This document shows positions 1 through 29,107 of a stretch of 64,000 bases of DNA, in pieces. The stretch covers positions 10,343 through 74,342 of the forward strand of contig CAZLJD010000041.1 in assembly GCA_964559865.1 (NCBI GenBank). Reading direction: 5' to 3'. The notes under the pieces are model-generated. The model worked only from the letters and a program-made list of their open reading frames with translations, was not told the DNA's origin and searched no databases. Source of the stretch: an uncultured Synergistota bacterium (GTDB lineage: Bacteria > Synergistota > JAGHAJ01). Positions within the stretch are counted from its first letter, which is position 1; every line of letters starts with the position of its first letter. A program made the position numbers and the translations under genes.

Positions 1-335
1 ATACGACTTTTAGAGAGCATGAACAGATCACTTTTATGAACCACATCAACAAAGTTACCGTCTTCGTCAATCACAGGGACGAAGGATACCTTTCCATCTC
101 GCAAGAGCATTTGCAAAAGTCTATCAAACTCATCAGAGCCAACATCAAGTATAACATTATCTATTTGCTCCCTGAGATGGCCATCGAGCTCTATCTTTTC
201 GCCAACAAACTTCACGATAGTATCTTTCGACAACAAACCCTTTATAAGTCCATCATCGCCCATAACTGGTATAACATTTGTGAAATACTTAAAGAAAAAA
301 CGCATTACCTCATTAATTGTCGCCCCCATACCCAT
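1..335 (-). CDS. CBS-domain protein; 5' end at 335, runs off the window start (partial)
   Basis: Manual reverse-complement translation gives MGMGATINEVMRFFFKYFTNVIPVMGDDGLIKGLLSKDTIVKFVGEKIELDG...VSFVPVIDEDGNFVDVVHKSDLF. Tandem CBS-like motifs. RBS AAAAGGTG is upstream. Not in the ORF track because it is truncated. Confidence 0.5.
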   Translation of the reverse strand, partial: MGMGATINEVMRFFFKYFTNVIPVMGDDGLIKGLLSKDTIVKFVGEKIELDGHLREQIDNVILDVGSDEFDRLLQMLLRDGKVSFVPVIDEDGNFVDVVHKSDLFMLSKSR

Positions 336-441: not shown

Positions 442-855
442 TTACTGAGGTTTGTTTTTTTTCTTTTTCGAGATAACTTCTGCCATATATGTTCTATATA
501 CCTCTTTCTTTTGCTTCTCTTTCTCTATCTCCTCTTTCGCTTTTCCAATCTCCTTAACAACCTCATCTATGGACGCTTTCTCTATTGGGTGCTCCTCCTC
601 TTCCTGAAGGTCCTCTATACTCACATATTTCGTCTCTATTCTTCCCTCATCTATAAAGTCTAGTATATCTTCCTCATCAACACCGGTCTCTTCTGCAACT
701 TCTTTTATCCGTGCACGAGGATGGTCTCTAAGATAATTGTAAACTTTCAGAAAATCCCTTTCTAACTCTTCCTTGCACTCAGGACAGATTGGTTTCCCCC
801 CATAATAAACAAAGGGTCTACCACACCTTATACAATTCCTCAGTTCTCCCGCCAT
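442..855 (-). CDS. YvyF-like zinc-ribbon protein ('flagellar operon protein' family)
   Basis: N-terminal CIRCGRPF...CPEC zinc ribbon. Lies immediately downstream of comFC, as B. subtilis yvyF does. Confidence 0.5.
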   Translation of the reverse strand: MAGELRNCIRCGRPFVYYGGKPICPECKEELERDFLKVYNYLRDHPRARIKEVAEETGVDEEDILDFIDEGRIETKYVSIEDLQEEEEHPIEKASIDEVVKEIGKAKEEIEKEKQKKEVYRTYMAEVISKKKKNKPQ

Positions 856-869
856 ACCAGATTCACCTC

Positions 870-1439
870 CTATCTCGCAAGAACTATACCGCTTACCTCA
901 CCTACACCACTCGAACGCAACACACTCGCAGCCGCAGAGAGCGTGGCCCCTGTAGTAAGTATATCATCAACAAGTAGTACCTTACTTACTGATACACCAC
1001 GCTTCATCATAAAAGCTCCTTTTACATTCAACCATCTCTCATCCCTACTTAACCCAACCTGGTCTTTTATCCCTCTCCTCTTAGACAGTATGCAACTAAC
1101 AGACACATCTACAGCCTTCGCAAGTCCACGTGCTAGCACTTCGCTCTGGTTGTATCCTCTCAGTACTATCTTGGAAACCTCCATTGGTATAGGCACAAGT
1201 AGATCAAACCCCATCACAACTTCAGCGTATTCTTTTACCAGCATGTACAACAACACTCTTTTTGCTGACATATCCTGACGGAACTTGAAAGCCTGTATAA
1301 GCTGCTTCAACTTACCAGTATAGTTACCCAAAACCCAGACTTTCCTTAACCCCACAACATCCTCAATACTAAACGGCTTTACTATCTCTTTGTAGCAGTT
1401 GCTACACACAACACCTTCTTCTATCTGCCTGCCACACAC
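870..1439 (-). CDS. comFC: ComF family competence protein (phosphoribosyltransferase domain)
   Basis: N-terminal double CxxC, and a C-terminal PRTase motif VLLVDDILTTGATL. Confidence 0.8.
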   Translation of the reverse strand: MCGRQIEEGVVCSNCYKEIVKPFSIEDVVGLRKVWVLGNYTGKLKQLIQAFKFRQDMSAKRVLLYMLVKEYAEVVMGFDLLVPIPMEVSKIVLRGYNQSEVLARGLAKAVDVSVSCILSKRRGIKDQVGLSRDERWLNVKGAFMMKRGVSVSKVLLVDDILTTGATLSAAASVLRSSGVGEVSGIVLAR

Positions 1440-14117: not shown

Positions 14118-15305
14118 ATGAAGCAACATATAAGAATACTCCACACTGCAGATTGGCATGTGGGACTTGAGTCTTGGAAGGCAGACATCCCAACTGACAG
14201 AACAGAAGAGATAAAAGACGCACTTCAATTCATGCTCCAGTACGCCCAAAACAATAATATTGACCTTATTATCATATCTGGAGACATCACGGAGCACAGA
14301 ACGTCACCAAGTGCAGTAGAACACCAAATAGTGCTACACTACCTGAACGAATTTTCAGCAGTAGCACCAGTAGTTGTCGTTACTGGCAACCACGATTGGG
14401 TAGGTCTGCCACAGTTAGATATATTTTCGAAGAAAACTAACATCCACCTCATAAATAGATTTTCAAATCCAAACGGTTCACCAGCATCAAGGACACTTCT
14501 CATAAAAGAGCAGAAAGTAAAGGTATTTGGCCTACCTTACTTCGATGTTCGGAATCTTATAAAAAAGTACATAGAAGAATTGTCCAACACAAGTATGGAC
14601 ATGCTAAAAATACACACATCCAAGATAGAGGAAGCATGCGAACCTGATGCGTGGAACATACTCTCTGCGCACATAGCAATAGAAGGTATAAAGTATAGAA
14701 ACTACATAGAAGATTCCTTAGAATTCAGCATAAACCCTAAACTGCTACCCACAGTAGATTACATTGCATTAGGGCACATACACTCCCAAATGCGTATATC
14801 GGAAGCACCAACCACAACATGGTTTTCTGGTGCCATAATTCAGAACGACTTTGGAGAAGAACAAAATCGTGTGGGATTCCTCATAGTAGACTTAGAAGAG
14901 GGGAAAAACCCACAGGTTCAACCAGTTGAAACACCCCACAAAAAGCTAAAAAGTATAAATGTTACATTAAACACAAACATGGAAAATTGCCTTAAAGAAA
15001 TAGAAGAAAAAGCCAACATACCCGAGGACTACCTGAGGATCACACTAAGGGTTAATCACATTCAAGATCTTCCGCCACTATGGATGTCAAGGATAAGGAA
15101 CATAAGCAACAAGATCGTAAAGGTAAATGTAGAAGTGGATAAAAAGGAAGATACCATAAACATATCCGGGATAAAAGAAAAGGCAAAGAACATAAAAGAG
15201 CTATTTGAGGAGTATATTGAAAAGACAGAAAATCTTACTGAGGAGGAGAAAGAAGCCATAATAAACTACTTCACTACCATATACGAAGAGGTAAAGGAGA
15301 CATGA
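14118..15305 (+). CDS. sbcD: Exonuclease SbcD (Mre11-type calcineurin-like phosphoesterase)
   Basis: IRILHTADWHVG, IISGDITEH and VTGNHDW motifs. Confidence 0.9.
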   Translation: MKQHIRILHTADWHVGLESWKADIPTDRTEEIKDALQFMLQYAQNNNIDLIIISGDITEHRTSPSAVEHQIVLHYLNEFSAVAPVVVVTGNHDWVGLPQLDIFSKKTNIHLINRFSNPNGSPASRTLLIKEQKVKVFGLPYFDVRNLIKKYIEELSNTSMDMLKIHTSKIEEACEPDAWNILSAHIAIEGIKYRNYIEDSLEFSINPKLLPTVDYIALGHIHSQMRISEAPTTTWFSGAIIQNDFGEEQNRVGFLIVDLEEGKNPQVQPVETPHKKLKSINVTLNTNMENCLKEIEEKANIPEDYLRITLRVNHIQDLPPLWMSRIRNISNKIVKVNVEVDKKEDTINISGIKEKAKNIKELFEEYIEKTENLTEEEKEAIINYFTTIYEEVKET

Positions 15306-17767
15306 GGCCTGAGAGGTTAAAAATAAGAAACTTTCTCGGTATAGTAGAAGCAGACATAAAATTCACAGATAGGAACGTATTTGCCATATTAGGAGATAAC
15401 GGTGCTGGTAAGTCCAGCATATTGGAAGCAATGTACTTTGCACTATTTGGAGAGACACTCCGATTCGGAGGAAAGGAAAAGAGATCTGCCATAAATAGAC
15501 ACTCTACTGAGGAAAAGCCAAAAGCAATCGTAGAGTTTACATTTTCGAACGCAAGTAGCAAATACAGGATAAAGAGGGTGATCTACGCAAGCAAACAATC
15601 AACCACCTCGATACTCGAGAAACTGTCTCCTATGAATACAACTTTTACAAGAGATATAGACAAAGAGATAAGGAAACTCATACAGGTAGACAAAGAGATA
15701 TTCAAAAAAACCATCCTTCTACCGCAAGGAGAGATGACGGGGTTTATATCGAGCAGAAAGGCAGAAACCGTGAAGAACATACTAACAGGCATATTCGGTA
15801 TAAGCACATTATCAGAGATCAAGAAGATTGTTTCACAAAAGCACAGTGAAGTAAAAGGCAAATATGAAGAAAAACAATCAAGAGTAGAAGCACTAAGCAC
15901 AATAGGAGGAAGGATACTCGAAGACGCATTAAACGAAAGCAAATCTCGTATAAAAGAGGCAGAGAGAGAGGCAAAAAGGTTAAAAGAAGCAATAAACAAA
16001 TTAAACCAAGAAATACAAACCACCATTAACCTTCTTGCTACTCGAAAGAGGATCCAAGAAAAAGAAGCAAAAATAAGACAAAAAGAGGCAGAAATCAAAG
16101 AGCTCTCAGAAAGGGTGAAGGAAGACGAACTAATCGAGAAAATACGAACTATAAAGCCATACTACGAAATACTTGAAGAAAAGGGGAAAAGGATAAATGA
16201 TGTTAGAAAAGCAATAAAGGAAACAACAGAAAAAATAGAAGAACTGGAGAGAAACAAATCAGAAATCGAAAAAAGACTCCAAAAAATCAAAGAAAGGCTG
16301 AACACATACGAATTGTGCAGACCTTTACATAAACAGTTCACAGAACTTCTACAAGCTATCAAGACAAACAAGACAAACAAAGGAAAGATAGAACATTCGC
16401 TCTGGAAGGAACAAAAAGAAGCCGAAAGCCTCAAATTAGAGTTAACAAGGCTGATTGAAAAGAAAAAAGATCTGCCATATTCCGAAAGAGAGCTACTTAT
16501 TATGAAACTAAAAAAGGATCTACAAGTGGGGGATAAATGTCCCATTTGCGGAAACACCATAGAAAACCTCGAAGCACACAGAAACCATATAGATACAGAG
16601 ACGCTAAAGACCGCCATGGAATTAGAAACAAACATAGAGAAGCTCAAACAAGAAATACAATCCTATAAAAAAGTTATTCTATCCTTAGAGGAGCAAGCAA
16701 ACAATCTATCATTAGAGATAACAAGACAGGAAGAAGAACTAAAAGGGTTGCAAGACGAAATAGAAAAAAAGACCGGGATCCTGGCAAAGCAATTTCAAGA
16801 AAACTTAGAGAAACTAACCAAGCAGAAAAACGCATATGAAAATGCTTACATCAGGGCAGAAACTACATTGGAAAACCTGAAAAAAACAGCAGAGGAATAC
16901 CAAAAAGCACTCCAAACATTCATCAATGAGCACGAGAAAGAGAAATTGAGATTCGACAGTAAATTCAAGCAAGCAGGCATTGACCAAGATACATTTCTAA
17001 AATACAAGGATAGGGAACCAACAGATGCAAAAAAGAGGGTTCAACAACTACAAACAGAAATCCAGCAATTAAAAACAGACATAGCATCAGAAAAAAGTTT
17101 AGTTGACACAGAAACTCCTATCTCTGAGGTAGAAAGGTTGCTCAAACAAAGAGAAGATGAAAAAAGCGAAAAGGAAACAAAGTTAGAAGAGGTAGCAAAA
17201 CTTCAAGGCAGTCTAAGAAAAGAGATCGAAAATATTCAAAACAGAATAGAAGAACTTGAAGAGCTAAAAGAACAGGTAAAAAAGGTGGAAAGAGAGTACA
17301 TCACAACAAGAAAGTTAAACTACTATCTTGAGAGCAATAGATTCCCTGCATATGTATCAGACTACTACCTCAACGCCATAGTGGAGAGGGCGAACCACAT
17401 ACTTTTCAGGTTTTTTAGCGGCAAATACACACTAAGTACCCAGAACAGTGAACTAAGAATAATAGACAAAAACCTGCCTGATAATGATGTCTCCATAGAC
17501 AGCCTTTCGGGGGGAGAAAAAGTACTCGTATCAATGGCTATTGCGATGGCCATAACTGAGCTTACAACAAATCACATAGACATGTTATTTATAGACGAGG
17601 GTTTTTCTCCCTTAGACAATAACAACATTCAAGAAGTCGCAAAAGAGATACAGTTACTCGAAAGCACAAACAAGGTCATAGGTATAGTTACACATAATCA
17701 GGACTTCGCCGAGCAGTTCAACCACATACTAAAAGTGGAAAATGGGAGGGTAGAATGGCTAAGATAG
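15302..17767 (+). CDS. sbcC: Exonuclease SbcC (Rad50-type SMC ATPase with CxxC zinc hook)
   Basis: N-terminal Walker A GDNGAGKSS. Long coiled coil with a central hook DKCPICGN. C-terminal signature LSGGEK and Walker B LFIDEGF. Confidence 0.9.
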   Translation: MRPERLKIRNFLGIVEADIKFTDRNVFAILGDNGAGKSSILEAMYFALFGETLRFGGKEKRSAINRHSTEEKPKAIVEFTFSNASSKYRIKRVIYASKQSTTSILEKLSPMNTTFTRDIDKEIRKLIQVDKEIFKKTILLPQGEMTGFISSRKAETVKNILTGIFGISTLSEIKKIVSQKHSEVKGKYEEKQSRVEALSTIGGRILEDALNESKSRIKEAEREAKRLKEAINKLNQEIQTTINLLATRKRIQEKEAKIRQKEAEIKELSERVKEDELIEKIRTIKPYYEILEEKGKRINDVRKAIKETTEKIEELERNKSEIEKRLQKIKERLNTYELCRPLHKQFTELLQAIKTNKTNKGKIEHSLWKEQKEAESLKLELTRLIEKKKDLPYSERELLIMKLKKDLQVGDKCPICGNTIENLEAHRNHIDTETLKTAMELETNIEKLKQEIQSYKKVILSLEEQANNLSLEITRQEEELKGLQDEIEKKTGILAKQFQENLEKLTKQKNAYENAYIRAETTLENLKKTAEEYQKALQTFINEHEKEKLRFDSKFKQAGIDQDTFLKYKDREPTDAKKRVQQLQTEIQQLKTDIASEKSLVDTETPISEVERLLKQREDEKSEKETKLEEVAKLQGSLRKEIENIQNRIEELEELKEQVKKVEREYITTRKLNYYLESNRFPAYVSDYYLNAIVERANHILFRFFSGKYTLSTQNSELRIIDKNLPDNDVSIDSLSGGEKVLVSMAIAMAITELTTNHIDMLFIDEGFSPLDNNNIQEVAKEIQLLESTNKVIGIVTHNQDFAEQFNHILKVENGRVEWLR

Positions 17768-18849
17768 ACCCACGTGAATTTATAAAAGAGCTAAAGCCAC
17801 ACGCAGATTGGGGCATAGAACACATACAATCGGTAGAGGAATTGGAAAGACAAGAAGAGGAAAAGATACATCCAAAAGTTATAACAGACAAAGACATCAA
17901 TGAAACGGAGATCTCATTAGATTCATGGAATAAATGGAAAGAGTCATACAAACCCCGTACCTTGTTCAAACCAGAGTCAGTAGTGTTTATAGACGGAAGG
18001 ATGCGTGTACACAGTAGGTTTATCCTGCATGACAGAAACCCTGCTATCATAGGAGAAACTATAGCTGGTGGTATCATCCTAAAAGGAGGAAAACTCTTTC
18101 TTGACTTCTCAAGCAACAAGCCACCAAAGATAATGAGGGTGCTCACTCTACCAGTGCAAGAAAGAGAAAGAGCAAAATCCATGGGCCTCAATGAACCCAT
18201 TCAAATACCCATCATATCCACCAACAGGTCCATAGAGCTTCACATAGTCTCATCAGATACAAAGGCATCAGAATCAGAAAGGGCATACTCCGCCCTGTTA
18301 GAAACAATGAGACTACTCGAAAGAGAGGTAGTAAACCACTACTTCTCAGAATCCAATCACTTTATAATCAAAGACGGCACACTGAGGCCGCCAGACAGAG
18401 AATTTATAAAAGGTAGGGGCCCTATCGGGCTAATAAAACGGATACACCAAGAAGAGATACCACCTGACTTCTTTGAAAGATTTATATACATGCTGGAAAG
18501 AGGTGAAAGAACCCCTTTCTTCTGCTACCGTATCTCGGAAAAACACACAACGATAAGAGTCATATCTTACATGAGGATAGCAGAAAAATTCCCAAGTGAA
18601 CACCCCATAAGGGGAATAGTAAAAGTAGAGTTATTGTCAGATGAAAATAGTATAGATAATAGGGAAAAAGAGGAAATAGCAGAAGCACTCGACTTTGTCA
18701 GCAGCTTGCTGCCAAAACTCACAAAGATACTGCCCATCCCACGATCTCCAGAAAATATATTTCCCATAATGTCGCTGGAAGATGCGCTTAGTAATTTCTT
18801 TCTTTCGTCTGATGTCGTAAAAACATCTTTTGAGAGGTGGTTAGCATAA
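17755..18849 (+). CDS. nurA: NurA-family 5'-3' nuclease (RNase-H-like fold)
   Basis: DG motifs VVFIDGRMRV and FIIKDGTL, 364 aa. Sits between sbcC and herA with 13-nt overlaps on both sides. Confidence 0.6.
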   Translation: MAKIDPREFIKELKPHADWGIEHIQSVEELERQEEEKIHPKVITDKDINETEISLDSWNKWKESYKPRTLFKPESVVFIDGRMRVHSRFILHDRNPAIIGETIAGGIILKGGKLFLDFSSNKPPKIMRVLTLPVQERERAKSMGLNEPIQIPIISTNRSIELHIVSSDTKASESERAYSALLETMRLLEREVVNHYFSESNHFIIKDGTLRPPDREFIKGRGPIGLIKRIHQEEIPPDFFERFIYMLERGERTPFFCYRISEKHTTIRVISYMRIAEKFPSEHPIRGIVKVELLSDENSIDNREKEEIAEALDFVSSLLPKLTKILPIPRSPENIFPIMSLEDALSNFFLSSDVVKTSFERWLA

Positions 18850-20774
18850 TGAAACCCATAGGAACCGTTACGGGTATAAACCCGATAACGCCATATGAAT
18901 TCTATGTAAGGCTAAAAGTAGAGAACGGAAAACCCATCTACATGTTGCAGATGGACGAGATAGTCAAAGCCGAGTATGAATATAAAAGGTTTGGTAAACT
19001 CAGGATATACGGGGTAGTAGTAGAAAACACTTGCAGGTGGGACCAAAATGACATTACAGGATACAAGGAAGATATCATAGCCTCTGGTGGCATGATAGGA
19101 ATACCAATATACTTAGCAAAAGTAGCAACCACGAGAATAATGAAATACATTAATGGAAGATGGATCGAAGATGAAATCTCGGTACCACCTCCCGCTGGAA
19201 CAGAGGTAGAACCAGTGGAAGAAGACGAAACAGACATCTCTCTTGCATTTGACAATCTGAAAGAAAAAGGTAGAGCCCTTCCTATAGGAGTCCTAACAAA
19301 TGGAAGCGTTGCATACCTCGACACAGATTACATACTTGGCAACAACGGAGCACACATAAATGTATCAGGCCTATCCGGTGTAGCAGCAAAAACATCTTAC
19401 ACAACATTCCTCATCTACAGCATGTTAAACAGCACCTCCGTAACGAAGGAACTGGCATCCTCGAGATTCATCATTTTCAACGTAAAGGGAGAAGGACTAC
19501 TCTTTCTGGACAGATGGAACAAGGAGTGGAAAGAAAAAGAAAGGACAGAAGACGAAGACTTCAAGAAATGGTGCGAAATGTTCAACAGGATGGGAATCAG
19601 ACCTAGCGTTTTTAAGAATGTGGAGTTTTACTCACCAAGGGGAAAGCTAAAGAAACCAGATGTGAATTACAGAGTAGACGGCAAAGTGAAAATATTTGGA
19701 TGGGATGCACTGGATGTTGTTACACTGGGACTCATCGAGTTCTTGTTTGACCCTTCTGAGCTTTCTGAAAATGTGAACATACAGCTTACCGTATCCGCAC
19801 TCTCAGAAATATTAGAAAGAAATTACTCCACACTCAAAAACGAGGTATTAAGAAAACTGAGAAAGTCTTCCAAAGATGAACCCAATGAAGGTGACAGCAG
19901 GGATAAACCCTTCCCATTTATAGATGAGATCGGATACGATCTCGACGGCCTCACAGAAGACCAGAAAGTAAGAGCATACTTGCAGGCATGCAGAACAGAA
20001 CCTAAAAAGATCTTAGAAGCTTATGGAATTCCTCCAACTATAAATGCCCTTGCAAACCTTCTAAAAGAAGAGAAAATAAAAGACGAGTTAAGCGAAGAAA
20101 TGATACAAGACAAGACAATAGGAGCAGTCTACAGGAGAATAAAAGCAGCACAAAAGCTTGATATATGGAAAGTATGGGTAGACATGAGCACAGAATCCAT
20201 GTTCTTCACACCATCAAAATATGAGGAACCCTCTTATCACATAAACTGGGATAGAAAAGGAGGAATAACGGTAATAGACATCTCCAAGCTGCGACACAGA
20301 GCGCAGATATTCGTTGTAGGCTCCATACTGAAACAGGTACTGCAAAAGAAAGAAGCGGGGTTGATAAAGGAACCCGTGTTTATATACCTCGATGAATTGA
20401 ATAAGTATGCTCCTCGCAGTGGAGGTGGACCCCTGGGAAGCATATTCAGAGACATTGCAGAAAGGGGAAGATCTTTTAAGATCATACTCATTGGAGCAGA
20501 GCAAACAGCATCTGAAGTAGACTACAGGGTGATAACACAGGCATCTACCACGGTAGTAGGCAGGCAAAAATTGGCAGAGCTGAAAAAAGACGAATATGCG
20601 CATCTGGTTGGCGCTCAAAAGGAGAAAGCAGCACATCTCGTACAAGGAGAAGTAATCATAGACCAACCATTTCTAAGAGTACCACTGCTGGTAAAATTCC
20701 CTCTAACACCGTGGTCAACGAGAGAGGACTCAGAGGTACCAGAGAGACAGGAGAATTTCGATGACTTCTTGTGA
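18837..20774 (+). CDS. herA: HerA-family hexameric DNA translocase/helicase (HAS-barrel + RecA-like ATPase)
   Basis: N-terminal barrel, LPIGVL...SVAYLDTDYILGNNGAHINVSGLSGVAAKTS, Walker B VFIYLDELNKYAP, and a long helical insertion. Confidence 0.7.
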   Translation: MVSIMKPIGTVTGINPITPYEFYVRLKVENGKPIYMLQMDEIVKAEYEYKRFGKLRIYGVVVENTCRWDQNDITGYKEDIIASGGMIGIPIYLAKVATTRIMKYINGRWIEDEISVPPPAGTEVEPVEEDETDISLAFDNLKEKGRALPIGVLTNGSVAYLDTDYILGNNGAHINVSGLSGVAAKTSYTTFLIYSMLNSTSVTKELASSRFIIFNVKGEGLLFLDRWNKEWKEKERTEDEDFKKWCEMFNRMGIRPSVFKNVEFYSPRGKLKKPDVNYRVDGKVKIFGWDALDVVTLGLIEFLFDPSELSENVNIQLTVSALSEILERNYSTLKNEVLRKLRKSSKDEPNEGDSRDKPFPFIDEIGYDLDGLTEDQKVRAYLQACRTEPKKILEAYGIPPTINALANLLKEEKIKDELSEEMIQDKTIGAVYRRIKAAQKLDIWKVWVDMSTESMFFTPSKYEEPSYHINWDRKGGITVIDISKLRHRAQIFVVGSILKQVLQKKEAGLIKEPVFIYLDELNKYAPRSGGGPLGSIFRDIAERGRSFKIILIGAEQTASEVDYRVITQASTTVVGRQKLAELKKDEYAHLVGAQKEKAAHLVQGEVIIDQPFLRVPLLVKFPLTPWSTREDSEVPERQENFDDFL

Positions 20775-24080: not shown

Positions 24081-24158
24081 CGGGGCGTAGCGCAGTCTGG
24101 TTAGCGCGCCTGCTTCGGGAGCAGGAGGTCGGAGGTTCAAGTCCTCTCGCCCCGACCA
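24081..24158 (+). tRNA. tRNA-Pro (anticodon CGG), CCA encoded
   Basis: 7-bp acceptor stem CGGGGCG/CGCCCCG, anticodon loop TTCGGGA, T-arm GGTTCAAGTCC, 3' ACCA. Confidence 0.9.
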
Positions 24159-24164
24159 TTATAT

Positions 24165-24962
24165 TTACTCCAACCTTAGGTAAACCGTCCTACCCCGATA
24201 CCTCAGACTATCAATATTGTTGAAGTTGTACCGCAAATCATTTACGAAAGAAGATATATATCCCCTATAGCTAACATAAATCTTGGCATTACCAGAGCTG
24301 TAGTCTGCCACAACTACTTTCCTCACAGAGGGTATGTGTTGCAGTCTGTCTACTATCTCATTCACCTGACTAAAACTCTCTATCCCGGATACTCTCAATA
24401 TGTACTTGTGCAATCTCCTGCTAGAGCCACCTGCAGGCACAAGTCCCACAAGATATTTGCCAAGCATCGTAGCCGCTTTGAGAAGAGCCTTACTCCTTGC
24501 CTCACCTCTGGTATATCCTATAGCTTTTGACACAAAAGACTTTGCAAAGATAAAACGACCATCTTTAGTTCTGTAAGCCTTTGCAGATATGGAAGCTGTG
24601 CCTGTATACAAACCAAACTCATTTTGTCTTGCCCTGTGCATAACAGCTCTGCCCTTTAAAAAAACATCTATCCTGTAAAGACTACCCAGCTTCATTATGC
24701 CGTCTACATCGCCCTTTAGCGCAAGAATAGCAGCCTTGCTCCTGCGTATACGATTTATCTGATTTTTGTCAACCACCTTGAAACCGGCATTCATCAGTAT
24801 CTCTATAATCCTTGCTTCAGCTGAACCAATCGTGCTATTGTACCCAAAACTGTAACCCTGATATATAATCACAGCTATCCGCTGGTTTCTGGTTATGGCA
24901 AAAGCAATAGAAGAAGAAACCAGCACAAAGAGCAGACAAAACAGCAGCACCCTTCTCATCAC
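24165..24962 (-). CDS. Exported protein with a CsgG-N/TolB-N-like alpha/beta domain (uncharacterized)
   Basis: Signal peptide MMRRVLLFCLLFVLVSSSIAFA. Carries the pattern RIAVII...SAEARIIEILMNAGFKVVDKNQI...GRA, also present in the neighbouring CsgG-like and FlgT-like genes. Confidence 0.45.
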   Translation of the reverse strand: MMRRVLLFCLLFVLVSSSIAFAITRNQRIAVIIYQGYSFGYNSTIGSAEARIIEILMNAGFKVVDKNQINRIRRSKAAILALKGDVDGIMKLGSLYRIDVFLKGRAVMHRARQNEFGLYTGTASISAKAYRTKDGRFIFAKSFVSKAIGYTRGEARSKALLKAATMLGKYLVGLVPAGGSSRRLHKYILRVSGIESFSQVNEIVDRLQHIPSVRKVVVADYSSGNAKIYVSYRGYISSFVNDLRYNFNNIDSLRYRGRTVYLRLE

Positions 24963-26332
24963 AAAGCACCTACCTTCTTTAGCTTTCTATTTATGGGGAC
25001 ATAATTCGGATTTATTTCATGGCCAATCTTCCAGTACTTAATAGCACTCTTCTTGTTTCCTATTTCGTAGTAAACCTCCCCTATCCAGTAGTAAGCAAGA
25101 TAGTCGCCCTTGTACAGCTTTATTGCCTCTTTGAGTATTTTTATAGAGCGCGCATACCTCCTGTGAGAATAGTTCCACCACCACTGTTTATGTATCCTTT
25201 TGAGGTTCTCCTTTAATTCGAAAGACACAGGGAAATAATCTATCACCTTTATAGAGTCAGAAGTGTTAGCAATATCGCTCTTGGGCAAAACCTTAGGAGT
25301 AGCAGTCGAAGGAGGAGAGCTCTCACTTGGAGCAGATGGAGAAGGTTTGTTTTCCGTTCTCTTACTTTTATTAAAGAGTTTGGATATGTCACGTGCAGAC
25401 CTTGGGCTTATAGTTATCTTTTCCACATCCTTTGCAGATATTGGCACAACTTTGTCCCCTCTCTTCAATGGGCCACCCTTTATAACTTTACCAATAGAAT
25501 AGCGGGCATGCGTTTCAACGATTTTTATTACACCAAGGTAAAGCTTTTCAACTCCCAAGATCTCTCCGTTAACACCCTTTATAGGTGCCCCCTCCACATA
25601 AGCAGCAAAGTAATCACCCTTTTCAACCTCTCCCGTAGCAGAACCTACATCTATGTAAACGGTATTCATTCCTCCTCTTACAACATGGATACCCCCTGTA
25701 GCCTCCGCATTTTCCATGTAGAACTTTCTTACTATCTTCTTTATGCACTTGTACGTTGCTGCAGCAAGTATTCCCTGCACTTGACCTTGTGCATAAACAG
25801 CTCCCCTAAAGGCCACTCCACCTATAGTATGCGACGCTTCGCCAGTCTCCCTTGCCACCAGCATAATTTCACCCGTCTCTACATTTATCATTCTCACATC
25901 GAGGGTAACATACGCCTTCTTTTCTCCTATCGCTATACCACCTATACCCGGTATAGGCAACACCCCTCCGCTCTGCTTGAATGTAAACTGCGTTATACTA
26001 CCTGTGATAATCGCCTGAACACCAAGGAGCTTACCCAAGCGAACAGCAGTAGCACTATCCACTAGGCCAGAAGCTGCAAGACGATGTTCTCTTGCTATAG
26101 CTTGGATCCTCGATCTCTCGACTATAGAGTACATGTGTGTTTTGTAAAGCTCAGTAGTAAACATGTCTGTTATTGCTCTCCTCACAGCATCCGTTACAGG
26201 TGTAGGACCAGAGGCGTTGTTCTGAAAATCAACTATAGCAACACGCATCTTGGAAGAGGCAACAGCGGGAGCAATCGCAACAAACAGAAGCACAGACACT
26301 ATCATACTTACAGACATCACCTTTTTAAACAT
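24959..26332 (-). CDS. CsgG-family (curli-type secretion pore) protein with Pro/Ser linker and C-terminal TPR
   Basis: Signal peptide. KMRVAIVDFQN...IVERSRIQAI...VTLDVRMINVETGEIMLVARETGEA aligns with E. coli CsgG (VNLRVVNVSTGEIL). C-terminal YYWIGEVYYEIGNKKSAIKYW is TPR-like. Confidence 0.8.
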   Translation of the reverse strand: MFKKVMSVSMIVSVLLFVAIAPAVASSKMRVAIVDFQNNASGPTPVTDAVRRAITDMFTTELYKTHMYSIVERSRIQAIAREHRLAASGLVDSATAVRLGKLLGVQAIITGSITQFTFKQSGGVLPIPGIGGIAIGEKKAYVTLDVRMINVETGEIMLVARETGEASHTIGGVAFRGAVYAQGQVQGILAAATYKCIKKIVRKFYMENAEATGGIHVVRGGMNTVYIDVGSATGEVEKGDYFAAYVEGAPIKGVNGEILGVEKLYLGVIKIVETHARYSIGKVIKGGPLKRGDKVVPISAKDVEKITISPRSARDISKLFNKSKRTENKPSPSAPSESSPPSTATPKVLPKSDIANTSDSIKVIDYFPVSFELKENLKRIHKQWWWNYSHRRYARSIKILKEAIKLYKGDYLAYYWIGEVYYEIGNKKSAIKYWKIGHEINPNYVPINRKLKKVGAL

Positions 26333-26348
26333 GTAAACTTGCCTCCCT

Positions 26349-26792
26349 TCACTTTATCTTCACACAATACAGTATTATCTTCTTGAGCGGTATAGCAACC
26401 CTCACATAGTAATAGTCATCCTGTATCCACCCTTTTAGCAGGTGTTCCCTCACTATCTTTCCAGAAACAGTTATTGATACAGCATTAGAAGGTACTCCAT
26501 ACTTCAAATTATATAAGACAAGCAGTGCGTTCCTCCTTGCATCTACAATTGCTGCCCTTCTCGCCAAAAGCTTAGACTGACCAGACGATGATCCCCCATA
26601 CTGCGAAAGAGGTGCCCTACCAAGAACATAAAGCAACTTACTATCCCAGTCCACCTTACCCCACGAAAACTTTTGCAGAAAATCATTATCCCAGTTTAAC
26701 TGTTGGAGTTCATCAACTGTAAGGGCATATGCAACACAATTCATCCCTATCAAAACAATAGCAAATACACTTACCCAAGAAACCATCTTCAT
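26349..26792 (-). CDS. LPP20-family (FlgP-like) exported protein
   Basis: Signal peptide plus the LPP20 motif SKLLARRAAIVDARRNALLVLYN. Confidence 0.65.
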   Translation of the reverse strand: MKMVSWVSVFAIVLIGMNCVAYALTVDELQQLNWDNDFLQKFSWGKVDWDSKLLYVLGRAPLSQYGGSSSGQSKLLARRAAIVDARRNALLVLYNLKYGVPSNAVSITVSGKIVREHLLKGWIQDDYYYVRVAIPLKKIILYCVKIK

Positions 26793-26804
26793 AACTTCCT
26801 CACC

Positions 26805-27968
26805 TCATTTTCCCTTAGGCTTACACACCACCTTGCCTGCGGAAAAGCCTGTAACTTCATAACCAAGTTTTTCCAGTTTTATTGCGAGGAATTCCGCACT
26901 ACCTTTTATATTTACATCAAACTCTGCATTCCCCCCTACAAAGCTCCTCTGATAAACCGCAACCACATTCTCTATGCGAGAGACTGCATCCTTAAAACTC
27001 ATCGCCTCAGAAAATGTTACACCCTCAACCCTAACCCTTATAGTTCTACCCGGTATAGCAGAAGGACCTCCACCAGCAAGGGCATAAGCCACCTTATACA
27101 TCATGGATCTCCCTGCCTTATACCCCAACCACTTAAACACCTTCACAGCTCCATCTTCCAAGCTCATACCTCTCTGCCTCCCAGACACCGACAGACTATC
27201 AACTATCTGCGCCGTCTGAGAAACAACAGCTCTCACCTGCAACTGCCCTTTTACTCCATATACTACCTGCCCATACAACTTCTGCTTGGTATATGCAAAA
27301 GCCATTGCCCTCCCATATACCACAATATCTGCATTGTGCTTTACAGCCAACTCTTTAGCAAGTGAAAGGTCACCAGACATTGCCTTTAAAGCTGCTAATC
27401 TCTTCTCGTTTTTAGATATCTGCTCAGGGTCTACCAACTGATAACCTGCCTTCTGGAAAACTGCAAGCATGGCAGATTCAACCGTAGAGACAAACGGTTT
27501 CTCCTTTCCTATCCTCTCATCTACAAGCAGCATAACAACAGGATTCCCCAACGCGTCTATAACAACAGGGCCAAGTACATCGTTCAGCCTCTTCATGGAG
27601 ACCGTAGCCTTTACTTTCAAGTGAAGTATCCCATCAGGTGTTTTCCATTTTCTCAACACTCTGTAGCCAGTAACAAGTCCCTTGCTTTTTGCAAACACCT
27701 TGTCTCTAACAACCTCAAAGTTCTTCATCTCGGTAACACTATGTATTAAGACACCCATGCCTTTCTCTATAGCATTCCTAAAGGCATCCAGCTTCGCTTC
27801 GTCAAATGCTCTAGACACATTACCATCTACTATAGCTGCAGCTCCCTCTACGATAACAGTAACAGGAGAAGGGTTTTTGGCAAACCCTACTCCCGGTGTA
27901 CTGACCAAAAGAAAAAACACGGCAAGGAAAACAAACAGTCTACTTCTCGCTTTCATTCCCGATCTCAC
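26805..27968 (-). CDS. Three-domain exported protein: LPP20-like N-domain plus CsgG-N/TolB-N-like middle domain (FlgT-like architecture)
   Basis: Signal peptide. N-domain VIVEGAAAIVDGNVSRAFDEAKLDAFRNAIEKG. Middle domain VMLLVDERIG...AGYQLVDPEQI...ADIVVYGRA. 387 aa, similar in size to Vibrio FlgT. Confidence 0.5.
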   Translation of the reverse strand: MRSGMKARSRLFVFLAVFFLLVSTPGVGFAKNPSPVTVIVEGAAAIVDGNVSRAFDEAKLDAFRNAIEKGMGVLIHSVTEMKNFEVVRDKVFAKSKGLVTGYRVLRKWKTPDGILHLKVKATVSMKRLNDVLGPVVIDALGNPVVMLLVDERIGKEKPFVSTVESAMLAVFQKAGYQLVDPEQISKNEKRLAALKAMSGDLSLAKELAVKHNADIVVYGRAMAFAYTKQKLYGQVVYGVKGQLQVRAVVSQTAQIVDSLSVSGRQRGMSLEDGAVKVFKWLGYKAGRSMMYKVAYALAGGGPSAIPGRTIRVRVEGVTFSEAMSFKDAVSRIENVVAVYQRSFVGGNAEFDVNIKGSAEFLAIKLEKLGYEVTGFSAGKVVCKPKGK

Positions 27969-28891
27969 CTCTTCACTACTATAACCCTACATCTGCTTCT
28001 GAAATCAAACCTGTTGTGTCTTATTATCTGTGCATACTTCATTGGTATCACCATGTCGACATTGTTCGGGGATACAGTCCTTATCACTTTAACAACAAGT
28101 GGACGAGTCGCAACACGTGGGTCTCCCTTCGCATAGTTTATATTGGTCTGATAAGCCACCAATCCGCTTGCCATGAACCTTTCCCTATCAACAAAGTTAA
28201 TGGAATATACCTCTTTACCCTTCGGATCAAGCACTCTACAAAGTGTAGCAGGTATCAACGGTACACTTCTTGCATCCAATACCAATCCAGAGTAATTATA
28301 TTTTGCCTTAGGCATCTCATGAGGGCGACGAGAAGGTATTTTCTTTATCTTAGCAACCACATCCCTAATGCCTTTCAAGTATATTCTCCCTGTAACAGTG
28401 TAAATCCCTTCATTTGGATCCCACTCACTCTTCACTATTCTTACACCCTTTATCCATCCATGAACTTCACTCTTAACCCAATCTTGAGCCATAAAATTAT
28501 TCATAACCGTCCTACTGTCAATCCTTACACCCTTTATTGCTTCAAGTAGATTCCTCTGCAGATCCAATATAGCACCTCTTTTGGCAAGCAATACCCCTTG
28601 GGCTTTATTCTTTACATTGCTCGGAGGAACTGCAGAACCGGTAGCTTCTATGTAGTCCTTCGTCCAGTTTATCACCGCATTTGGACCCTTTTCTATAACA
28701 GGAGGTGCTTCCTTTGGAGGAGGTGAAGCCTCTGAAACCTGATTTGGAGGTGGCACCTGACTATTAGAATTTATCATACCCCCTCCTGTACCTCCAATCA
28801 TACCCGAGGAGCTGCCCGATGCCGCTAAACCAATAGGCAGCAAGGTAAACAAAAGCAGCCCTACCATAAGTCCTACTATTATCCTTCTCAT
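27965..28891 (-). CDS. Exported LPP20-domain protein with a Gly/Ser/Pro-rich N-terminal linker
   Basis: Signal peptide, low-complexity SGSSSGMIGGTGGGM...PPPKEAPP, then the LPP20 motif KAQGVLLAKRGAILDLQRNLLEAIKG. RBS AAAGGAGGGG. Confidence 0.55.
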   Translation of the reverse strand: MRRIIVGLMVGLLLFTLLPIGLAASGSSSGMIGGTGGGMINSNSQVPPPNQVSEASPPPKEAPPVIEKGPNAVINWTKDYIEATGSAVPPSNVKNKAQGVLLAKRGAILDLQRNLLEAIKGVRIDSRTVMNNFMAQDWVKSEVHGWIKGVRIVKSEWDPNEGIYTVTGRIYLKGIRDVVAKIKKIPSRRPHEMPKAKYNYSGLVLDARSVPLIPATLCRVLDPKGKEVYSINFVDRERFMASGLVAYQTNINYAKGDPRVATRPLVVKVIRTVSPNNVDMVIPMKYAQIIRHNRFDFRSRCRVIVVKR

Positions 28892-29107
28892 AACGACCCC
28901 TCCTTTAATTCTAAACTAAATTAAATATCTGTGTTTAATAATACCATAAACATTCAAAAACATAAAGGGGATATACACGGCCGGTAGTGGAGCAGAAGCG
29001 GAGGAGAAGTGGAAAAAGCAAAGTATGACAACTACTCACACCCACACATCAATTTCAGGAGTTGCACAATGTGTTAAAATACTTCTTGTGAAAGGAGGAG
29101 ATAATAG

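Follow-up and report, generated by a model that had tools for sequence, protein, structure and literature searches.

What does a bacterium build with five consecutive genes for exported proteins whose folds recall both the disks of flagellar motors and the curli protein CsgG, when flagellar genes are absent around them? The question is raised by positions 24165-28891, minus strand, of a stretch of DNA from an uncultured Synergistota bacterium (contig CAZLJD010000041.1; 64,000 nucleotides in all, here called the window). The source contig is metagenomic, and its nearest genome is a Synergistetes metagenome-assembled genome (MAG), with 85% identity for the fourth gene of the block, g2. The five genes combine known ring-forming modules in a conserved way that has not been described, and the combination is likely independent of the flagellum. 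The reading that we favour, with a probability of roughly 40%, is that their products form a flagellum-independent, outer-membrane-associated ring scaffold or stabiliser related to FlgO, FlgP and FlgT. The first-pass annotation, made from the letters of the window, had regarded the block as undescribed as a unit, and among the papers that the literature searches retrieved, none joins CsgG with LPP20 or FlgT. From first to last, and with lengths in amino acids (aa), the genes are:

27965-28891, minus strand: g5, 308 aa, first gene of the block
26805-27968, minus strand: g4, 387 aa from a GTG start or 383 aa from the ATG at 27956
26349-26792, minus strand: g3, 147 aa
24959-26332, minus strand: g2, 457 aa
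24165-24962, minus strand: g1, 265 aa from a GTG start or 264 aa from the ATG at 24959

All five open reading frames (ORFs) are present where the first-pass annotation had placed them. The 4-nucleotide (nt) overlaps that it reported at two junctions exist with the GTG starts. With the ATG starts at 27956 (g4) and 24959 (g1), which the gene caller chose and which are better positioned relative to upstream Shine-Dalgarno-like sequences, the junctions become a gap of 8 nt and an overlap of 1 nt. With 12 nt between g4 and g3 and 16 nt between g3 and g2, the gene packing is tight whichever starts apply. A terminator scan found no terminator-like site on the minus strand within the block, and neither the promoter scan nor the terminator scan gave matches beyond chance level.

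That every product is exported, with a Sec-type signal peptide, was borne out when the N-termini were read by eye, each having a basic n-region, a hydrophobic core and a small-x-small site; the putative cleavage sites are GLA/A, GFA/K, AYA/L, AVA/S and AFA/I. By the same reading, a lipobox Cys is absent from the predicted cleavage sites of all five. The g2 signal peptide ends AVA/SS, without a Cys, and only 7 of 66 g2 orthologues have lipobox-like motifs, mostly inside the hydrophobic core; such motifs are rare in g3, g4 and g5 orthologues too.

Folds of the five proteins

The g2 protein combines a CsgG-family domain with a FlgT_C-like domain and a C-terminal repeat region, as follows:

25730-26263, minus strand: CsgG-family domain of g2, residues 24-201
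25913-25969, minus strand: hairpin insertion 1 of g2, residues 122-140
25772-25831, minus strand: hairpin insertion 2 of g2, residues 168-187
25433-25687, minus strand: FlgT_C-like beta domain of g2, residues 216-300
24998-25168, minus strand: TPR of g2, residues 389-445

The CsgG core announced by the first-pass annotation is recovered by Pfam CsgG (PF03783) with an E-value of 4.1e-31 and 108.4 bits against a gathering score of 20.8; all eight aligned g2 orthologues match the same model, and the strand quoted from g2 aligns to E. coli 'IAVNLRVVNVSTGEIL'. In the Pfam scan of g2, a match to LpoB is weaker than that to CsgG, and C-terminal TPRs are found as well. The g2 profile matches E. coli CsgG at E 8.7e-8, with the TM1 hairpin included at near-equal length. 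Orthology to the curli protein does not follow, the NCBIfam CsgG equivalog PRK15184 giving g2 22.3 bits against a cutoff of 505, and Pfam FlgO (PF17680) has no match in g2 or g1 at E<=1.

The hairpins of g2 are delimited by comparison with a hairpin-less, FlgO/FlgT_C-like relative from locus L094, in another phylum (hhalign probability 99.4, E 5.7e-21), which is gapped exactly at g2 residues 119-140 and 166-192, the CsgG hairpin segments. This relative matches Pfam FlgO (31 bits, cutoff 22.6) and FlgT_C, and its FlgT_C region aligns to g2 residues 216-300. Both hairpins are conserved and Gly/hydrophobic-rich in 58 orthologues, and a Pro/Ser linker with a conserved 'ANTSxSxxVIDYxP' motif precedes the TPR (orthologue alignment A4).

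Passing the Pfam threshold and keeping both hairpin insertions, g2 could be read as a CsgG-type channel (type VIII-like, as curli CsgG or Caulobacter HfaB) for a surface protein or polymer encoded elsewhere, with the other four proteins serving in the periplasm as gates, adaptors or a cage. We see it as the foremost alternative to a scaffold, although we consider it rather unlikely. Additionally in its favour, TPR modules are characteristic of exopolysaccharide exporters on their periplasmic side, and one relative by fold is the PelC ring. A possible argument against it comes from the constriction loop, formed in E. coli CsgG by Tyr51, Asn55 and Phe56: the hidden Markov model (HMM) alignment of g2 with CsgG begins just past it, and by our comparison the corresponding region of g2 appears much shorter than in E. 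coli, by about 7 residues, with still shorter ones in other g2 orthologues (alignment A4). Moreover, Pfam assignments reveal no CsgA/B/E/F-like gene in the window. A curli or holdfast system was rejected, as neither CsgA/B/E/F-like nor HfaA/D-like partners accompany the genes.

Two variants of g2 were seen in related loci. In a 50%-identical relative (L008, 9586-11018) the gene is called as two pieces of 65 aa and 404 aa, for which a frameshift, a pseudogene or an assembly error is possible. A second CsgG paralogue of about 657 aa, with two linker-plus-TPR units, is present in L005 (16126-18099) and L009 (14148-16124).

Two further proteins, g5 and g3, are FlgP-like and have the SHS2 fold:

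28337-28696, minus strand: SHS2/FlgP-like domain of g5, residues 66-185
g5 residues 122-150, minus strand: FlgP-type hairpin insert within the SHS2 domain
27968-28294, minus strand: Tp0624-D2-like domain of g5, residues 200-308
g5 residues ~21-60, minus strand: Gly/Ser/Pro-rich tether after the signal peptide
26376-26675, minus strand: SHS2 domain of g3, residues 40-139

The g5 profile (A2) aligns with C. jejuni FlgP (9hmf_C) at E 9e-22, spanning the hairpin without a gap, with other FlgP proteins at about 1e-6, and with Tp0624 of Treponema pallidum at E 2.2e-4 over residues 94-278. Its homologues number 112, and all named ones are from Synergistota. In the AlphaFold2 monomer of g5 the predicted local distance difference test (pLDDT) score is 78.7, falling below 50 in the hairpin insert. 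A Foldseek search with this model gave Tp0624 (5jir_A) at E 2.8e-12 (TMq 0.61, 253 columns) and FlgP at 2.4e-4. Weak fold matches in the structure searches were HP1454, Tip-alpha and Lpp20. The tandem of Tp0624 domains D1 and D2 is therefore reproduced in g5, both domains being present in the same order and with matching fold, and the OmpA-like D3 is absent from g5. According to the authors of the Tp0624 structure (5JIR), D1 and D2 occur only as a pair, which about 50 proteins from varied bacteria carry while lacking D3; the role proposed for Tp0624, where the pair is fused to an OmpA-like domain, is stabilisation of the peptidoglycan and envelope.

The small g3 protein is paralogous to the N-domain of g5 (hhalign probability 98.6, E 1e-15). 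Its profile (A3) finds C. jejuni FlgP with an E-value of 1.4e-4, the alignment leaving a gap of 9 residues at the hairpin. It evolves fast, and since a word-based homologue search gave just 2 proteins, its orthologues were collected from related loci. The N-terminal region of g4 is likewise paralogous to g5 (blastp and hhalign).

The LPP20 motif that the first-pass annotation saw in three of the proteins stands in part: the motifs it quoted from the three are the SHS2 helix and align to that helix in the solved FlgP, but Pfam LPP20 (PF02169) matches none of the three at E<=1, and only 3 of 43 g5 homologues. The assignment is valid at the level of profiles and folds only. More generally, the direct HMM scans of the five proteins confirmed CsgG but left LPP20, FlgT and FlgO unmatched.

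In some lineages g5 orthologues reach 540-843 aa (L032, 6456-8726; L096, 4458-6989); the additional length comes from low-complexity or coiled-coil inserts (Pfam PF12072/PF27881, Sel1) that separate the signal peptide from the FlgP-like domain.

The last two proteins, g4 and g1, divide as follows:

27600-27863, minus strand: N domain of g4, SHS2, residues 36-123
27072-27539, minus strand: M domain of g4, TolB-N/CsgG/PelC fold, residues 144-299
26817-27047, minus strand: C domain of g4, ferredoxin-like, residues 308-384
g1 residues ~21-175, minus strand: TolB-N/CsgG-fold domain, by paralogy to g4 M
g1 residues ~185-259, minus strand: ferredoxin-like domain, by paralogy to g4 C

The AlphaFold model of g4 (pLDDT 81.4) shows three domains, and a Foldseek search of the PDB with it returned Vibrio FlgT as the top two matches (E 2e-11 and 2e-10), so that g4 has a three-domain N-M-C fold similar to that of the solved FlgT. 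The two proteins are of like length, and the domain boundaries of g4 lie very close to those published for FlgT (N 24-109, M 121-287, C 292-377). The FlgT-like layout that had been proposed for g4 thus holds for the N and M domains, but the C domain is ferredoxin-like and not the FlgT_C barrel. Pfam FlgT_N is matched by 25 of 33 g4 homologues (best 1.2e-9), FlgT_M and FlgT_C by none of the 33, and g4 itself has no Pfam match at E<=1. A search of PDB sequences with the g4 profile (A1) did not retrieve FlgT; the profile matches the solved FlgP at E 1.5e-6 over residues 27-120, and at the position of the SHS2 hairpin the model has a helix-containing insert. The N and M region also weakly matches LipL46 (E 1.9e-10, 40 bits against a cutoff of 400).

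For g1, Pfam gave no match and a profile search of PDB sequences nothing meaningful. However, hhalign aligns g1 to g4 residues 138-379 (probability 99.6, E 6.6e-25), blastp agrees on the paralogy, and the CsgG domain of g2 is matched with probability 85 and E 6e-6. By these alignments, g1 is a paralogue of the M and C domains of g4, and thus a third TolB-N/CsgG-fold protein and not an unrelated one.

Taken together, SHS2 modules are present in g5, the N domain of g4 and g3, and TolB-N/CsgG-fold modules in g2, the M domain of g4 and g1, while all three FlgT domain types are present but divided between g4 and g2. The resemblance to FlgO, FlgP and FlgT noted in the first pass is therefore borne out by the folds.

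The same resemblance suggests a second alternative, a flagellar accessory that in Synergistota would take the place of the H-ring or basal disk in the lateral flagella of motile members, its genes persisting as relics in non-motile lineages. FlgT is the top structural match of g4, and the profiles of g5, g3 and g4 match FlgP. In line with this, a FlgP homologue from the diderm firmicute Acetonema longum has served as a query (PMC5758724). The failure of the FlgT_M and FlgT_C Pfam models on g4 argues in the opposite direction, as does much of the genomic context given below, and we regard a flagellar role as distinctly unlikely.

Distribution and genomic context

Ten Synergistota loci obtained through homologues and 80 loci from a metagenome scan seeded with the g5 alignment were searched with the five family profiles. 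Counted by g5, the gene set was found again in 53 distinct lineages of Synergistota, which confirms the combination of a CsgG-family protein with three SHS2 (LPP20/FlgP/FlgT_N-fold) proteins as a real conserved unit. The g4 gene directly follows g5 in 35 of 38 lineages and g3 follows g4 in 30 of 35; of the 21 lineages with at least 5 kb of sequence downstream, 20 have g1 and 20 have g2 on the same strand. Three layouts occur, and the order in the window, g5-g4-g3-g2-g1, is the minority. The common one (layout B) has only hairpin-less TolB-N/CsgG-fold proteins, with TPRs, and layout C has a short g1 and two CsgG genes. As regards conservation in relatives, the gene set and the g5-g4-g3 segment are maintained, but the complete five-gene order of the window is not the usual one. 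The description of the operon as an orphan has to be given up, since it is phylum-wide in Synergistota and a g4-like/CsgG-like pairing is found in other phyla too.

These counts bear on two explanations. Four of the five proteins have no direct Pfam match, as might be expected of unrelated exported proteins that are adjacent by chance; this is nevertheless extremely improbable, given that the five families share a strand in nearly all lineages with enough sequence, that the g5-g4-g3 order is constant wherever it is detected, and that the genes are tightly spaced with Shine-Dalgarno sequences and mutually paralogous. A pore-centred reading is also weakened, because many related clusters, including all of layout B, carry only hairpin-less CsgG-fold proteins.

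Named carriers are Synergistota, Synergistaceae, Aminobacteriaceae and a Pyramidobacter-labelled MAG, and the database names of the proteins are all 'hypothetical protein' or 'FlgT N-terminal domain-containing protein'. Flanking genes vary among lineages. A sixth exported gene (f3), absent from the window, follows g1 in 17 loci (L005 14034-14741, L024 11170-11889 and 15 others); its product, 235-250 aa long, repeats the motif 'xxYDxxxxxW' five or six times, in what may be a beta-propeller-like arrangement. Pfam found no matches for f3, for the neighbour families f4 and f8, or for upstream proteins of 553 and 462 aa. As an exported repeat protein, f3 lends some support to secretion, as does a glycosyltransferase gene close to the cluster in L005 and L009; on the other side, no candidate substrate is conserved in the window or across loci.

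Outside Synergistota, a profile search of 1.84 billion representatives gave 12,436 clusters for the g4 family, 1,179 of them at E<=1e-30, the top 150 being mostly near-full-length. Members occur in Latescibacterota and in Proteobacteria; four proteobacterial proteins of 649-668 aa (P0277, P0364, P0367 and P0369), named 'caspase family protein' at NCBI, carry the g4-like region (profile positions 10-365) at the N-terminus. A family of this size, with caspase-like fusions, is far above what would be expected of a motor accessory. In three of four non-Synergistota loci, the g4-like gene lies at most 5 kb from a CsgG- or FlgO-like gene, often with an LPP20-like, TPR or FecR gene nearby. One of them, from Latescibacterota (L093), has a 1179-aa FG-GAP/Ig-repeat protein between its CsgG-like and LPP20-like (g5/g4-like) genes, a further point in favour of secretion, whereas the g4-like protein of L094 is partnered by a FlgO-like one that lacks hairpins, a point against it. 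In another locus (L010), a gene with TPR and SLH domains is found between the g5-like and g4-like genes.

In L093 (2942-11951) and L095 (4320-9678) a FecR-domain gene comes directly after the g4-like one, and in L093 the next gene encodes a CHASE2-guanylate cyclase. The g4-like and FlgO/FlgT_C-like genes of L094 (8001-10415) lie within an apparent aryl-polyene-type lipid cluster, flanked by ApeP-like, ApeI-like, LolA, ketoacyl synthase and acyltransferase genes.

In agreement with the first-pass annotation, no flagellar structural gene was found among about 45 ORFs of the window to which Pfam families were assigned. The rest of the window encodes a V-type ATPase, SbcCD, Opp transporters and housekeeping proteins. 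Among 12 Pfam-annotated loci, flagellar Pfam families are absent within 7-10 kb and the flanks differ, so that the operon is unlinked to flagellar genes in all loci examined. In Campylobacter, too, flgP and flgQ lie apart from other flagellar genes, a point in favour of a flagellar role. A motif search upstream of g5 found no sigma-28-type TAAA-N15-CCGATA site, again contrary to a flagellar assignment. Furthermore, motility is patchy in Synergistota, and the genome of Aminobacterium colombiense is without flagellar genes (PMC3035294), while the cluster is present in Aminobacteriaceae and in the Pyramidobacter-labelled MAG. Four features of the window remain to be placed in this context:

28892-28937, minus strand: putative operon leader with sigma-70-like -35/-10 elements (TAAACA-18-TAGAAT) and a Shine-Dalgarno sequence
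24081-24158, plus strand: tRNA-Pro (anticodon CGG), 6 nt past the g1 stop and convergent with the operon
442-855, minus strand: yvyF-like zinc-ribbon protein, 137 aa, CxxC...CPxC, downstream of comFC
870-1439, minus strand: ComFC-like phosphoribosyltransferase gene, upstream of the yvyF-like gene

In the leader, AAAGGAGGGG is a strong Shine-Dalgarno sequence that ends 6 nt short of the start codon (ATG) of g5; the promoter there is a candidate only, because promoter-like matches do not exceed shuffle expectation. The tRNA-Pro(CGG), the sole RNA gene in the window by ARAGORN and Rfam, sets the downstream boundary of the block. Beyond the window edge (L012), the genes that come after the yvyF-like one encode a CBS/HTH_8 regulator and metabolic proteins. 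The yvyF-comFC pair was accordingly ruled out as a relict flagellar region, no flgM, flgN or flgK being found past the edge, and the missing flgM and flgK also count against a flagellar accessory. A link of the operon to the adjacent LysM/M23 peptidase, M20 peptidase and Opp transporter genes was likewise discarded, as these flanks are not conserved elsewhere.

Elsewhere in the window, positions 14118-20774 (plus strand) hold an SbcD-like (Metallophos) and an SbcC-like (821 aa, SMC_N/AAA_23) gene, followed by two overlapping genes of 364 and 645 aa for which no Pfam family is on record; these genes may form an uncharacterised module for DNA repair or defence. Regions whose genes lie mostly on the minus strand have a GC skew of about -0.2 to -0.37, against values close to zero or above it in the plus-strand blocks at 6-20 kb and 52-56 kb. 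The AT skew rises to +0.43 in a plus-strand block, and both skews fit purine-rich coding strands.

A possible ring scaffold at the outer membrane

The closest counterpart is flgOPT of Vibrio, with which the operon shares the SHS2 fold (FlgP, FlgT_N), the TolB-N-like fold (FlgT_M, FlgO) and a FlgT_C-like domain, the last, however, being located in g2. Whereas the Vibrio proteins are flagellar, with FlgO and FlgP lipidated, the operon has neither flagellar linkage nor lipoboxes, and the Pfam models FlgT_M, FlgT_C and FlgO miss g4, g2 and g1. Specific to the operon are the ferredoxin-like C domain of g4, the CsgG hairpins and TPRs of g2, and the Tp0624-D2-like domain of g5. Compared with CsgG and HfaB, whose family g2 joins by its Pfam score and its two hairpin insertions, g2 is not a lipoprotein, has an apparently shortened constriction-loop region, lacks csgA/B/E/F nearby in the window, and carries the FlgT_C-like domain, the Pro-rich linker and the TPR as additions. 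C. jejuni also has several SHS2 paralogues together (FlgP and FlgQ), but g5 differs from its FlgP by the D2 domain and the lack of a lipid anchor, and g3 by the shortened hairpin; nor does the operon have the PflA/PflB-type partners or the flagellar context of the C. jejuni basal disk.

More distant systems show partial likeness. The lpp20 operon of H. pylori (HP1454, HP1456/Lpp20 and HP1457) likewise encodes several envelope proteins of the SHS2/LPP20 fold, but these, like LipL46 of Leptospira, are lipoproteins for which no CsgG-fold partner is described, and the likeness to them lies far under family cutoffs. Similarity to the PelC ring of the Pel exporter, LpoB, LptE and TraT is at the level of folds, with no Pel, Lpt or penicillin-binding protein partners in the locus. 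A Tol-Pal or LpoB-type function was rejected on the same ground, the TolB-N/LpoB likeness being of fold only and partners being absent. Collectively, the operon shares folds with each of its closest systems but fails their defining features, i.e., lipidation, the Pfam families FlgT_M, FlgT_C, FlgO and LPP20, curli partners and flagellar linkage.

A ring assembly is favoured because both folds are known to build large rings at the inner face of the outer membrane. CsgG is a nonamer, and PDB entry titles describe PelC as a 12-mer and TraT as a 10-mer. In published flagellar structures, FlgT forms a 26-mer and FlgP and FlgO form 58-mers anchored by lipidation, the H-ring being attached to the membrane through FlgH, FlgP and FlgO, all lipidated; FlgP ring formation depends on its beta-hairpin insert (Drobnic et al., PMC12222027). 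By analogy, the operon would encode a relative of the H-ring of Vibrio and the basal disk of Campylobacter that stands on its own. In such a scaffold, g2 would form a CsgG-like oligomer that inserts its two Gly/hydrophobic hairpins into the outer membrane, and this barrel could be the membrane anchor, possibly also a channel, replacing the lipid anchors of FlgO, FlgP, FlgH and CsgG; an anchoring role is suggested because none of the five proteins is lipidated, unlike those of the H-ring. The g4 protein with its truncated paralogue g1, and likewise the FlgP-like g5 and g3, would form periplasmic rings under g2. From g2 the Pro-rich linker with the TPR, and from g5 the flexible N-terminal tether, may reach towards the peptidoglycan or the inner-membrane side. 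A link to the cell wall and a structural role are proposed because of the OmpA-like fusion in Tp0624 and the TPR+SLH gene in L010. What the analysis shows directly is the order and conservation of the genes, the folds and domains of their products, the paralogy among them and the lack of flagellar linkage in the loci seen; the oligomerisation and membrane insertion, the interaction of the five proteins and their function are what we infer here.

Several points weigh against this scaffold. The g2 hairpins are predicted outer-membrane insertions by alignment, and the second hairpin is, by our comparison, about 6-8 residues shorter than that of E. coli CsgG. A retained outer-membrane barrel might fit transport better than anchoring, and the scaffold role is argued in part from absences, namely of a cargo gene and of lipoboxes. 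In addition, a chemoreceptor gene adjoins the cluster in L008; because of this neighbour and the yvyF-like gene of the window, the host may well be flagellated, and both observations also favour a flagellar accessory.

A broader proposal, which we hold to be less probable than the scaffold itself and on the doubtful side, is that the operon represents a non-flagellar sister or ancestor of the H-ring and basal disk: a CsgG-type barrel with concentric FlgT-like and FlgP-like rings, universal in Synergistota and reduced in many other phyla to a pair of FlgT-like and CsgG/FlgO-like proteins. If this is true, flagellar periplasmic disks were recruited from a widespread, unstudied envelope module. 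The FlgP/FlgO/FlgT disks of high-torque motors are textbook evolutionary add-ons without a known origin, and the operon is a concrete candidate source module for them, because it has the same folds, no nearby flagellar genes, and a CsgG-type barrel joined to these folds. For Synergistota and other little-studied diderm phyla, it is a new conserved component of a poorly understood outer envelope, and any functional assignment would spread widely, because the g4 family comprises more than 12,000 clusters whose named members are hypothetical or labelled by domain or family.

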